Positions 20,787-28,436 of a stretch of DNA of 58,739 nucleotides are shown here, piece after piece. This DNA is from Candidatus Hodarchaeota archaeon (GTDB lineage: Archaea > Asgardarchaeota > Heimdallarchaeia > Hodarchaeales > Hodarchaeaceae): assembly GCA_016839815.1 (NCBI GenBank), contig JAEOTM010000170.1:1-58739 (forward strand), read 5' to 3'. Every line of letters begins with the position of its first letter. The first letter of the stretch is position 1. The translations under genes were made by a program, and so were the position numbers. The notes under the pieces are model-generated. The model was not told the origin of the DNA, ran no database searches, and saw only the letters and a list, made by a program, of their open reading frames with translations.

Positions 20787-22412
20787 TTGGCAATAATGCA
20801 AGACACATTTTTCGATACAATAAATGAGTATTTACAGCCCCCAATTGATTTCTTATTCGACGGTGGTCCTGTTATTTTCATGCCTATTATCATTATTATC
20901 TTAGGACTGATCTTTAGACAGGGATTATCTAGATCGATTCGATCTGGTATCCTAATAGGCATTGGATTTATCGGTATCTTCACGTTTGCCTTTGATGTCT
21001 TTGGTGGTACAATTGGTCCCGCAGCTGCCGCTTTTGTACAAAATACAAATAGTGACCTTACGGTAATTGATGTAGGCTGGGGTCTAGCAAGTAGTATCAC
21101 TTGGGCCATGCCAACAGCATTTGGTGTTATTATAGTATGTTTCTTAGTAAACCTTGTAATGTTGGCACTCGGATCTAGATCGTTTAATTTCCGTGGACAG
21201 ACATTCAGACTGGGAACTTTAACTTTAGATATCGATCTTTGGAACTACTGGGCTTTCGGTTTTACTGCAGCCCTCACCTATGTTGTGCTATCTCCAGACG
21301 ACTATTTAGGTCCTGAATTAGCCTACATCATTGCTATGATCTTCGCTGCTATTCACGCAATCATGGCATTTAAGATTTCTGATTGGATTGCTCCCTGTAT
21401 GGCTGATCCTGAAAATTTCAATTTACCAGGAATTTCACTACCACATGGGAATGCAATGATGGCTCCATATGCATTTGCTATTGACAAAGTTCTCAAAAAA
21501 ATCCCAGTTATTGGCACCGCAAAAGCTGATCCTGACTCTGTTCAAGAAAAATTAGGTCTCATTGGAGAACCTATCTTTCTAGGACTAGTCATTGGTTTTG
21601 TAATCGGTACTCTTGGGTATTACGAAGGATTAACACCCCTCCTTAGTGCCTCATTCTGGGATACTTTAGGAACAATTGCCAACGTGGCAATGGTTTCTGC
21701 AGCAGTAATGTATTTAATCCCCAAAATGGTCGCAGTATTGATGGAAGGACTTATACCCCTTTCAGAAGGTATTCGGGACTATATAACGAAAAGATATCCC
21801 GGTCGGGAATTCATCATCGGAATGGATATGGCAATCATAATTGGTTATCCAGCTGTTATCGCTGTGGCTCTACTTATGATTCCGATAGCAATTTTCCTTT
21901 CTCTGCTCTTTAGTGCTCTTCCCGCTCCATTTGGGATGGTAGTATTACCTTATGTTGACTTAGCAGGTATGGTTTTCTACTCAGTCTTAGCTGTTATGCC
22001 TTCAAAAGGAAATATTATCCGTGGTACAATATCTGGTACAATCCAACTAATAATGATCCTGTATACTGCGGGAATCATGGCTCCGCTAATGACAGCAGCA
22101 GGAGCTCAAGCTATTGCCCAAGGTTTCGAGTTCGGACTTGCAGATGTTCAATCGATCTTTGGAACTGATATAACTATCACTTCTCTAGATGCTGGTAGTA
22201 ATGCAGTCCATTGGATGTTAATTCTGCTAATCTTCCCGTTCTTTACCATGGAAGCTTGGACCGTACTCTTCGAAGACGGATATTGGATTTGGTTTGCGAT
22301 AGATGTACTGTGGTGGGTTGGTTACATACTACTTTGGTACTATCTACGTGATGAACCAACGAAAATTGCAGAGGAGAAACTAAATATCGATGCCGCTGCA
22401 GGCACCATATAG
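20787..22412 (+). CDS. PTS EIIC permease, galactitol (GatC/SgcC) family
   Basis: IGIGFIG, IDVGW, DIDLWNYW, GISLPHG, GEPIFLGLVIG, LMEGLIPLSE, IGMD, PYVDLA and KGNIIR. Confidence 0.93.
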   Translation: MAIMQDTFFDTINEYLQPPIDFLFDGGPVIFMPIIIIILGLIFRQGLSRSIRSGILIGIGFIGIFTFAFDVFGGTIGPAAAAFVQNTNSDLTVIDVGWGLASSITWAMPTAFGVIIVCFLVNLVMLALGSRSFNFRGQTFRLGTLTLDIDLWNYWAFGFTAALTYVVLSPDDYLGPELAYIIAMIFAAIHAIMAFKISDWIAPCMADPENFNLPGISLPHGNAMMAPYAFAIDKVLKKIPVIGTAKADPDSVQEKLGLIGEPIFLGLVIGFVIGTLGYYEGLTPLLSASFWDTLGTIANVAMVSAAVMYLIPKMVAVLMEGLIPLSEGIRDYITKRYPGREFIIGMDMAIIIGYPAVIAVALLMIPIAIFLSLLFSALPAPFGMVVLPYVDLAGMVFYSVLAVMPSKGNIIRGTISGTIQLIMILYTAGIMAPLMTAAGAQAIAQGFEFGLADVQSIFGTDITITSLDAGSNAVHWMLILLIFPFFTMEAWTVLFEDGYWIWFAIDVLWWVGYILLWYYLRDEPTKIAEEKLNIDAAAGTI

Positions 22413-22440
22413 GATTTTACACGACTACGAGTAAAATTCC

Positions 22441-22460
22441 TTCCCCCCTCTTTTTTTTTC
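22441..22460 (+). terminator. Archaeal pyrimidine/T-tract terminator after EIIC
   Basis: TTCCCCCCTCTTTTTTTTTC about 30 nt after the stop. A similar C-then-T tract follows the gene ending at 38629. Confidence 0.45.
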
Positions 22461-22545
22461 AGGAAATTTCTGACAATAACAGCTTTTTATGTTGCTGAAA
22501 ATTTATAAGCCTCAGTTGTAATTTGTTCTAAAATTGTAGGTTAAG

Positions 22546-22875
22546 GTGATAAAAATTTCATTCAAACAAATTCTAGTTGCTTGTGGTACCTCTATTGCTA
22601 CTGCAACGGTTGTTGCATCAAAAATCAAAGATTTATCGAGAGCAAACAAAATAAAGGTAAAAATCACTCAATGTAAATCATTTGAGGTAAAAGGAAAAGT
22701 GAACTATCAAAAATACGATCTAGTAGTATCTACTACCAAAGTCAGTGGAGAACAGGTTACAGGGGAGAAAAGAGAGATTAATGGCGTCCCCATCCTAAAT
22801 GGAATTCCTTATCTTACTGGTATGAAAAAAGATATATTAGACCAAAATATTCTAGAAATCTTAAAGGGTGAATGA
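22546..22875 (+). CDS. PTS EIIB, galactitol/lactose-type
   Basis: Phosphoacceptor loop ILVACGTSIATAT, plus YDLVVST and NGIPYLTG. Confidence 0.92.
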   Translation: MIKISFKQILVACGTSIATATVVASKIKDLSRANKIKVKITQCKSFEVKGKVNYQKYDLVVSTTKVSGEQVTGEKREINGVPILNGIPYLTGMKKDILDQNILEILKGE

Positions 22876-27646: not shown

Positions 27647-27683
27647 TGTACCCTCACCGATTATTTAATGGTTTAAACAAATT

Positions 27684-27956
27684 TTACTCTTCTCCAAATT
27701 TGTTTTCAATCATATTTTGTAAGACATTTTTTGCTTCTTGCGCGTCAGATCCTTCTAAATATACCGTGACAGAATCACCTTTCTCCGCTCCGAGTCCTAA
27801 AACTCCTAGTATCTTTTTTGCATCCGCTTTGTTACCTTCCTTCTCCACTAGTATTGTTGCTTCGTATTTTTTAGCTGTACGGACAAACAACGCAGCAGGT
27901 CTTGCATGTAATCCCACACGATTTTGAAGGATTGCAGTAAATTGTACTTTATCCAT
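27684..27956 (-). CDS. ptsH: PTS phosphocarrier HPr
   Basis: GLHARPA (His15 equivalent), LG..KGD.V.V..EG.DA.EA. A GGTGA RBS precedes the ATG at 27956. Confidence 0.95.
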   Translation of the reverse strand: MDKVQFTAILQNRVGLHARPAALFVRTAKKYEATILVEKEGNKADAKKILGVLGLGAEKGDSVTVYLEGSDAQEAKNVLQNMIENKFGEE

Positions 27957-27977
27957 TTTTATCACCCATGACTTTAG

Positions 27978-28436
27978 CTACTGACCATTAACAGTTATTA
28001 AGGTCTTTAGTTGTTCTTTAATTTTTTCCTCATCATTTTCTGTCTTTAAAAATGAAACTATATCTGGTTTACTGAAAACGTTATCTGTTAATGCTTTTAA
28101 ATTAGGAACTACCAGTTCAGGTTTTTTAATACATAATAGAAAGACAAGATGAACTGGAATTACTTCATCTGGGTCTTCCATATTTTCCCATAAAATCTCT
28201 GAATTCAATATTGCAAGATGGATTGCTGGCTTTAATACATGCTCAGTTTCTGCATGAGGAATTGCTACATTAAATGCTCCATCCAGTATGAGTCCAGTAG
28301 GGAACTCTAATTCTCGTTTGTAGATTGCTTCTTCATATGATGATTTAACATACCCTTTTTGAGAGAGAGATGTTACCAATTCATGAATAAGCTCTTTTTT
28401 ACTTGTAAAGTTTGATCGTGAAACATGTATATCCAA
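27978..28436 (-). CDS. PTS EIIA, galactitol/fructose/mannitol-type (GatA-like)
   Basis: KGYVKSSY.EA..RELEFPTGL, VAIPHA (phospho-His) and W.NM..P..IPV.LVFLL. Confidence 0.92.
   Translation of the reverse strand: MDIHVSRSNFTSKKELIHELVTSLSQKGYVKSSYEEAIYKRELEFPTGLILDGAFNVAIPHAETEHVLKPAIHLAILNSEILWENMEDPDEVIPVHLVFLLCIKKPELVVPNLKALTDNVFSKPDIVSFLKTENDEEKIKEQLKTLITVNGQ

Follow-up and report, generated by a model that had tools for sequence, protein, structure and literature searches.

We describe a complete phosphoenolpyruvate (PEP):sugar phosphotransferase system (PTS) encoded between positions 20787 and 28436 of a 58,739-nucleotide stretch of archaeal DNA (hereafter the window), which is the whole of contig JAEOTM010000170.1 (C148) in the metagenome-assembled genome (MAG) of a Candidatus Hodarchaeota archaeon (genome code G000). 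Our analysis indicates that this is very probably a genuine chromosomal PTS of Hodarchaeales, the only one in its genome, old in the lineage, accessory to its hosts and probably directed at a polyol substrate.

All five components, EIIC, EIIB, Enzyme I (EI), HPr and EIIA, were located by open reading frame (ORF) calling and Pfam searches within a span of 7,650 bp, with EIIC and EIIB on the plus strand and a convergent EIIA-HPr-EI operon on the minus strand, which bore out both the five-component system of 7.7 kb and the strand layout described in an initial annotation of this DNA. On the plus strand, a Gat-family EIIC (20787..22412; PF03611 EIIC-GAT, 198 bits; TIGR00827, 298 bits against an equivalog cut-off of 542) is followed by EIIB (22546..22875; PF02302 PTS_IIB, 38.5 bits; best NCBIfam match GatB). 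On the minus strand lie EI (25919..27646), whose three domains PF05524, PF00391 and PF02896 scored 362, 81 and 77 bits and which reached 581 bits with TIGR01417 (cut-off 342), HPr (27684..27965; PF00381, 93 bits; TIGR01003, 89 bits, cut-off 48) and a PTS_EIIA_2-type EIIA (27978..28436; PF00359, 91 bits; best NCBIfam match GatA). Three further plus-strand genes, absent from the initial annotation, separate EIIB from EI. They encode a class II aldolase-family enzyme bearing a FucA-type signature (23032..23658; PF00596, 177 bits), a Zn-dependent medium-chain dehydrogenase of the polyol/threonine dehydrogenase group (23674..24738; ADH_N and ADH_zinc_N) and a 351-aa membrane protein without a Pfam or NCBIfam match, here called unk351 (24803..25858).

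The phospho-acceptor motifs previously read as intact were all present, with His191 of EI in SHVAII, His20 of HPr in GLHARP, His61 of EIIA in AIPH and Cys13 of EIIB in ACGT, and all four phospho-site motifs were invariant across 5–6 orthologues that are otherwise 48–85% identical. EI aligned over its full length with two enzymes of known structure, 2HRO and 2WQD, keeping the phospho-His loop and the RTEFLY, RTLDVGGDK and NDLTQY motifs, and its catalytic Cys506 lies in GICGELA, aligned to GMCGEMA of 2HRO. With a three-domain EI carrying both His and Cys, an HPr carrying its His, and EIIA, EIIB and EIIC called above the Pfam cut-offs, the gene set is that of a complete PTS. EI, HPr, EIIA_2 and EIIC-GAT each occur exactly once in the source genome, where no Glc-type EIIC was found, so these genes constitute a single, self-contained system. 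PEP-dependent phosphotransfer and coupled uptake are predicted from the genes, in that phosphate would pass from PEP to His191 of EI, then to His20 of HPr, His61 of EIIA and Cys13 of EIIB, and from there to a substrate entering through the Gat-family EIIC.

The locus recurs in related genomes. A block running PhoU-DegT-DeoC-EIIC-EIIB-aldolase-dehydrogenase-unk351, then EI-HPr-EIIA-UPF0047 on the opposite strand, then BtpA, was found gene for gene in G010, where it sits inside a 631,821-bp contig, and in G021, G005 and G016; it is partly present in G001 and occurs in reduced form on a 102-kb JGI contig (L041). Heimdallarchaeota B3_Heim (G002) is collinear with the window for ~14 kb up to EIIB and carries archaeal GatD/GatE further on the same contig. 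The same EIIC is present in Ca. Hodarchaeum mangrovi FT_5_011, B3_Heim, SZ_4_bin2.246, Hodarchaeota DZ1B.236 and TM2S.58, and a peptide-pattern search of named genomes, with patterns too specific to reach bacteria, returned six loci, all Hodarchaeales-type.

By sequence, EIIC is assigned to the Gat family (TC 4.A.5), its sole NCBIfam match being TIGR00827 EIIC-GAT (“galactitol-specific”) and all its named homologues being annotated as galactitol IIC; BLASTP with the window EIIC did not detect the Asc-like EIIC of G047. The galactitol-family character noted earlier thus held, with the EII parts nearest to GatA, GatB and GatC in NCBIfam. Because scores stayed below the equivalog cut-offs (EIIC 298/542, EIIB 59/95, EIIA 72/139, dehydrogenase 155/550), the substrate itself is a guess and galactitol specificity is unsupported. 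The two catabolic genes offer further clues. The PSSE...HAH motif of the aldolase-family enzyme has its aligned counterpart in 6BTD and 4C25, its Glu matches the catalytic Glu, and its best PDB matches are fuculose-1-phosphate aldolases, with all NCBIfam equivalogs below cut-off. In FucA, the catalytic residue is Glu73, acting with a Zn-binding His triad, as opposed to Asp in AraD-type epimerases, and an AraD-type epimerase role was down-weighted on this Glu signature. PDB relatives of the dehydrogenase are threonine dehydrogenase, sorbitol dehydrogenase, xylitol dehydrogenase and GatD (4A2C). Neither a PF01116-type aldolase (GatY/GatZ) nor a kinase was found by Pfam among the ORFs of 17.3–33.6 kb.

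Based on the polyol-dehydrogenase relatives and the FucA-type aldolase signature, we favour a route in which the substrate, most likely a sugar alcohol, would be taken up and phosphorylated by the PTS, the phosphorylated product would be oxidised to a ketose phosphate by the adjacent Zn-dehydrogenase, and the ketose phosphate would be split by the FucA-like class II aldolase into dihydroxyacetone phosphate (DHAP) and an aldehyde. As a specific series of steps this is a tentative proposal, which we think somewhat likelier to be wrong than right, and since the JGI contig L041 encodes a PTS without aldolase or dehydrogenase, the downstream pathway may not always depend on those two enzymes.

In every locus the third added gene, unk351, is placed between EI and the catabolic genes, and where the aldolase and dehydrogenase are missing it stands beside EIIB. 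Among 5.8e9 proteins its family accounts for 14 clusters, whose members come without exception from Hodarchaeales-type MAGs and are annotated as hypothetical, and a search of 1.84 billion representatives gave two full-length and two fragment sequences below 1e-10. The protein consists of an N-terminal helical domain, a two-transmembrane (2-TM) hairpin of hydrophobic helices 74–92 and 107–125, and a C-terminal domain of ~190 aa. No match was obtained with Pfam at E ≤ 10 over five aligned sequences or with a profile against the PDB, and an atlas search gave sub-threshold PLDc_2 leads only. The full-length AF2 model was poor in its C-terminal half, and the fold was taken from a second, domain-only model of medium quality (13 sequences, pTM 0.64). 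With this model, Foldseek returned 19 matches at E ≤ 1e-3, all of the phospholipase D (PLD) fold (Zucchini, FAM83, TrmBL2, TrmB and NucT), and the top 28 VIA rows were likewise all PLD-fold, with Z-scores of 10.0–5.1 before a drop to 3.5.

Judged by its modelled fold, the C-terminal domain of unk351 is placed in the PLD superfamily. It shares this fold with 2F5T, the effector domain of the sugar-sensing regulator TrmB (VIA Z 8.7, root-mean-square deviation 3.7 Å over 118 residues), whereas it differs from TrmB in lacking detectable sequence similarity and a recognised winged helix-turn-helix and in having the 2-TM hairpin; because the catalytic PLD nucleases Zucchini and NucT scored equally well, the match is one at superfamily level and does not single out TrmB. 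At the His position of the HxK(x)4D motif, 13 orthologues have Q, D, I or T while keeping the Lys and Asp, and this lack of conservation at the His predicts a PLD-like domain without catalytic activity. Candidate roles for unk351 are those of a tethered sensor, a scaffold or a regulator. EIIC itself carries a lineage-specific C-terminal tail of ~80–100 aa with at least one extra hydrophobic segment by hydropathy, and this tail coincides with the lineage-specific unk351. In its most developed form, the idea would be that unk351 is an archaeal invention on a borrowed PTS, a membrane-tethered sensor or accessory subunit that binds a sugar, a sugar phosphate or a phospho-carrier, docks on the EIIC tail and couples transport to regulation, for example via a palindrome upstream of EIIC; we consider this speculative and rather unlikely as a whole. 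If true, unk351 would represent a class of PTS component without a bacterial counterpart.

Considering these features together, one might ask whether the relay is mainly regulatory, with EIIC serving as a sensor or a PTS-independent carrier and not in catabolic uptake. B3_Heim, whose 93%-complete genome holds EIIC-EIIB without EI or HPr anywhere, would fit such an arrangement, as would the L041 system without catabolic enzymes and the predicted TrmB-like, effector-type and membrane-tethered fold of unk351. However, the B3_Heim state adjoins an insertion sequence (IS) element and may be a recent deletion, the source genome has no PRD target (no search aimed at PRD regulators was made), PtsN-like protein or second EIIA target, and in most loci the dehydrogenase and aldolase belong to the same predicted transcript as the PTS, which leaves a mainly regulatory relay improbable beside a PTS for catabolic uptake.

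Signals resembling those of archaeal transcription surround the PTS genes. In an alignment of six EIIC upstream regions, a BRE/TATA-like promoter box (20680..20696, plus strand) took the form of a AGATAGATTTATATA-type block shared by all six, and ~30 nt past the TATA box lies an inverted repeat, TTGAGA-N8-TCTCAA (20725..20744, plus strand), a candidate operator or 5′-leader hairpin. The repeat occurs once in the window and is kept in 5/6 loci, and in G016 its two arms have changed in concert; the N-terminus MAIMQ and a GGTGA motif ahead of the EIIC start codon were also conserved. After the EIIC stop codon, an archaeal terminator-like oligo-C/oligo-T tract (22439..22460, plus strand) is kept in all six loci, and upstream of the EIIA-HPr-EI operon an A/T-rich TATA-like box (28559..28574, minus strand) is found as a TTACTGAATTTTAATAA block in five. 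These conserved boxes and tracts look like archaeal promoter and terminator features; searched for as a simple pattern, the BRE/TATA consensus showed no enrichment in the window, and the case for it is its conservation across genomes.

Within Hodarchaeales the PTS has been lost repeatedly. When 18 congeners were placed on an aEF-2 tree, the PTS was present in every member of its two deepest pairs (G001/G016 and G010/G005) and in G021; one five-genome clade lacks it wholly, in the tight clade of G000 it is complete in G000 only, and at least four changes are needed to account for this pattern. The aEF-2 orthologue of the source genome (G000:C64:25135-27567) is 811 aa long and matched the archaeal aEF-2 model in two pieces (430 and 262 bits, cut-off 738), which suggests that it is the divergent, eukaryote-like EF-2 reported for the Hodarchaeales group.

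Three relatives preserve traces of the loss. In G013 (L069, G013:C114), the first 56 DegT codons are fused to the EIIA-UPF0047 spacer, with the joint at window positions 18727|28509, and in G020 (L068, G020:C45) PhoU is joined directly to BtpA at 18369|29239. B3_Heim keeps DegT-DeoC-EIIC-EIIB, followed by an IS605 OrfB/TnpB gene, and has no EI or HPr genome-wide; the IS605 gene (L023:15579-16859; Cas12f1-like TNB) stands exactly at the end of homology with the window and is followed by the archaeal GatD/GatE genes. In these genomes the PTS was deleted; they do not represent empty sites. UPF0047 was retained in G013 after PTS loss, and BtpA in both G020 and G013; as obligatory PTS partners, UPF0047 and BtpA were rejected because both outlast PTS deletion in these genomes. 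The locus occupies a single chromosomal site on both deep branches, and the most economical account is that the genus ancestor already had the PTS and that its descendants lost it repeatedly.

The three independent deletions among the closest relatives, and a distribution so patchy within the genus, could also mean that the window holds a decaying remnant, intact by chance, unused and heading for the loss already seen in G002, G013 and G020. We consider this very unlikely, as all ORFs are intact, the phospho-site motifs are invariant across orthologues down to 48% identity, promoter elements are conserved, including the palindrome with its jointly changed arms, and the locus persists on both deep branches of the genus.

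The locus has also been reshuffled. When window positions 18559-30054 were compared with L016–L019, L023 and L041, the genes fell into three patterns: PhoU, EI, HPr, EIIA, UPF0047 and BtpA were 78–94% identical to the lineage of the 102-kb JGI contig and B3_Heim, and 53–79% to Ca. H. mangrovi; for EIIC, EIIB and unk351 the values were 47–76% and 66–84%, respectively; and the aldolase and dehydrogenase, absent from the JGI and B3_Heim loci, were 76–78% identical to Ca. H. mangrovi. The tree of EI conflicts with that of EIIC in a corresponding way. Taken together, the identity mosaic and the disagreement between trees point to the window locus as a recombinant of two Hodarchaeales alleles, formed by allele replacement within Hodarchaeales.

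The host is a member of Hodarchaeales. The initial annotation had proposed an Asgard host, and this was borne out by an actin of eukaryotic type (440 bits) and a pair of neighbouring Snf7/ESCRT-III genes in the source MAG (4.24 Mb, 206 contigs, 89.5% complete) and by the names of its congeners, with Ca. Hodarchaeum assigned to Hodarchaeales by NCBI. C148 was the 11th closest of 93 long contigs by tetranucleotide distance, its GC content (0.358) is close to that of the genome (0.360), and within the window the PTS region has no GC deviation. The decisive point against mis-binning is the synteny of the PTS block across Hodarchaeales assemblies, and the contig, whose taxonomy the initial annotation had wished to see confirmed, proved neither bacterial nor chimeric. 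A binning or assembly artefact, with a bacterial or edge-chimeric contig placed in an Asgard MAG, might be suspected because the MAG is in 206 contigs with 7.8% estimated contamination and because PTSs are typically bacterial, but it is effectively refuted, and extremely unlikely, given a contig compositionally central in the bin, an identical order of 11 genes in seven Hodarchaeales assemblies from different studies (including the 632-kb and 102-kb contigs), flanks collinear over 14 kb with a B3_Heim contig that bears archaeal GatD/GatE, and bacterial homologues at ≤45% (EI) and ≤40% (EIIC) identity.

The distribution was also surveyed across the phylum. Among 400 Asgard genomes from 85 genera, EI above the curated cut-off was found in 15 genomes (5 genera), HPr in 14 (4 genera) and EIIC-GAT in 11 (3 genera). 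The survey of Asgard ptsI proposed in the initial annotation thus shows that the system is not unique to the source genome. Asgard PTSs are of several kinds, Gat/Asc, mannose and dihydroxyacetone (DHA) kinase. Ca. H. mangrovi has a second, mannose-family set, with EI-HPr beside EIIA-man and IIB-sorb (L021, G005:C329), and the Heimdall-class G034 encodes EI-HPr-DhaM-DhaL-DhaK-MIP (L020, G034:C1). Other Gat/Asc-type EIIs occur in G047 and in the Asgard genus g61; the G047 locus (L034, G047:C15) reads EIIA, SIS, then EI-HPr-EIIC-GAT-IIB. A further locus, L040 (G286:C210), has EIIC-GAT and IIB-EIIA-FGGY kinase adjoining HPr and a homologue of the RuBisCO large subunit.

A 2021 transportome survey of five Asgard proteomes found not a single PTS protein (PMC7997004); with EI in ~4% of the genomes sampled here, the statement that Asgard archaea have no PTS is too broad. 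Our literature search found no paper describing a PTS in Heimdall or Hod lineages, and the supplements of Eme et al. 2023 give K08483 only lumped with PEP synthase. The earlier suggestion that an Asgard PTS had gone undescribed thus stands as far as papers are concerned, though automatic annotation at NCBI and JGI already labels orthologues as PTS proteins.

Sequence comparisons indicate that the PTS is old in Hodarchaeales. Homologues of EIIC formed ~18 clusters at 64–84% identity, the named ones being Hodarchaeota or Hodarchaeales except for one 3.5-kb contig labelled Thorarchaeota; beyond Hodarchaeales there was one 48% match, on scaffold L030, and then ≤40% to Firmicutes, Actinobacteria-type sequences and one Korarchaeota sequence. 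For EI, a Hodarchaeales clade at 48–78% was followed by Clostridia, Bacilli and one “Odinarchaeota” sequence at 42–45%. Trees of EI and EIIC, which come from quick IQ-TREE runs supported by SH-aLRT values only and are indicative, each contained a maximally supported Hodarchaeales clade with a long stem and deep internal splits. In the EIIC tree this clade was sister (99) to the L030 sequence, and the pair joined (98) the Korarchaeota sequence and Asgard genus g61. In the EI tree, g61, g23, G034, G043 and the second G005 copy fell outside the clade on long branches of unsure placement, and these other Asgard EIs were 32–39% identical to the window EI. The deep and exclusive EI and EIIC clades argue that the PTS is not a recent bacterial import. 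Its ultimate source lay outside the lineage and looks Firmicutes-like for EI, and EIIC possibly came by way of other archaea.

Scaffold L030 (ENA ERZ23499022 scaffold_37, 77.7 kb, GC 0.42), which carries the closest non-Hodarchaeales EIIC, has other genes without a close match to the source genome. Its order is EIIA, EIIC-IIB-aldolase-dehydrogenase, then an sgc-like module of EIIA-EIIC-IIB, ribulose-phosphate 3-epimerase, M42 peptidase and BtpA, and then YjbQ; EI and HPr were not found in the 16.5 kb examined. An 111-aa ORF after its dehydrogenase was considered as a stand-alone unk351 N-terminal domain or P0127 version and rejected, as it has no similarity.

The history we propose is that a PTS of outside origin would have been at its present chromosomal site by the time of the common ancestor of a Hodarchaeum-level genus, and that since its arrival it would have gained promoter and terminator signals of the archaeal type, together with unk351, a membrane partner specific to the lineage; later it would have become an accessory locus, repeatedly deleted by relatives and reshuffled by recombination. 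Several points weigh against our overall interpretation. HPr has Lys at the position of the regulatory Ser46, and HPr kinase (HprK) was not found in the source genome. All EII and catabolic enzymes lie under their NCBIfam equivalog cut-offs, and L041 has a full PTS without aldolase or dehydrogenase. The repeated loss in close relatives shows the PTS to be dispensable, and the source MAG has 7.8% estimated contamination, though nothing implicates C148.

Of all archaea, Hodarchaeales are placed among the nearest to eukaryotes, and what is known of their metabolism comes from genomes only. To our knowledge eukaryotes lack a PTS, and since the machinery described here is also ordinary, views of eukaryogenesis are unaffected. 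The Hodarchaeales PTS extends a well-known system to a new lineage, with one added component specific to that lineage; it is not new machinery. An old PTS, adapted to archaeal signals and still exchanged and lost, offers a clear example of the absorption of a bacterial module into Asgard genomes; the predicted PEP-driven uptake of a polyol-like substrate could guide enrichment or cultivation, and unk351 becomes available for study as a new PTS-linked protein.

The genes flanking the PTS have their own histories. To the left lie an AbrB/MazE-PhoU domain protein (17330..18367, plus strand; Pfam PhoU and MazE_antitoxin), a possible regulator that anchors this side, being 77–95% identical and syntenic in all related loci and retained in PTS-less genomes, then a DegT/LegC-type aminotransferase for sugars that uses pyridoxal phosphate (18559..19794, plus strand; Pfam DegT_DnrJ_EryC1, 291 bits) and the deoxyribose-phosphate aldolase DeoC (19811..20479, plus strand; TIGR00126, 228 bits, cut-off 117). 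To the right, UPF0047/YjbQ (28617..29039, minus strand; PF01894) is divergent to a BtpA/SgcQ-family TIM-barrel protein (29239..30054, plus strand; PF03437, 244 bits). Beyond these, an 1143-aa GH13-like protein with a weak Alpha-amylase match (30135..33566, plus strand) anchors the indel on its right side in the closest relatives; orthologues of it, 70–76% identical, border the deletions of G020, G013 and G018 as well as the L041 locus, and in-frame stop codons (TGA/TAG) occur in the copies of G013 and G020. Elsewhere the window carries two defence-type genes, an OLD-family AAA/TOPRIM nuclease (11972-13681) and an Eco57I/MmeI-type fused restriction-modification methylase (45722-47815), and cytochrome bd oxidase subunits I and II (52557-54979; 462 and 300 bits). 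An oxygen-tolerant or microoxic lifestyle has been proposed for Heimdall and Hod lineages, and the cytochrome bd genes fit it.

One of the known systems closest to the window locus is the E. coli gat operon. GatABC likewise comprise separate EIIA (PTS_EIIA_2), EIIB (PTS_IIB with an N-terminal Cys) and EIIC (EIIC-GAT), and the operon likewise includes a Zn-dependent medium-chain dehydrogenase related to GatD. Unlike gat, the window locus has no GatYZ-type tagatose-bisphosphate aldolase or kinase and has a FucA-like aldolase instead, and it differs further in the C-terminal tail of EIIC, its own EI and HPr, the archaeal host and the promoter signals. The E. coli sgc cluster, another and uncharacterised Gat-family PTS, contains SgcA/B/C with SgcE, SgcQ and SgcX; there too a Gat-family EII adjoins a BtpA/SgcQ-family protein, whereas the window lacks the ribulose-phosphate 3-epimerase and the M42 peptidase. 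UPF0047 and BtpA both recur by Gat-type PTS genes in scaffold L030; since BtpA is kept in PTS-less relatives, the sgc-like link is weak in the window. PTS-dependent DHA kinase is a further related system, and its DhaKLM-type arrangement is seen in the Heimdall-class G034. Also close is the fructose PTS of Haloferax volcanii (Pickl et al. 2012, PMC3370872), in which a full EI-HPr-EII relay of bacterial type likewise lies in an archaeal chromosome and has been shown to work in its host, in contrast to which the Hodarchaeales system has a Gat-family EII in place of one of the Fru family (TC 4.A.2), comes from a different archaeal phylum than that halophile, and has an HPr that scored 67 bits against the haloarchaeal HPr model (cut-off 140).

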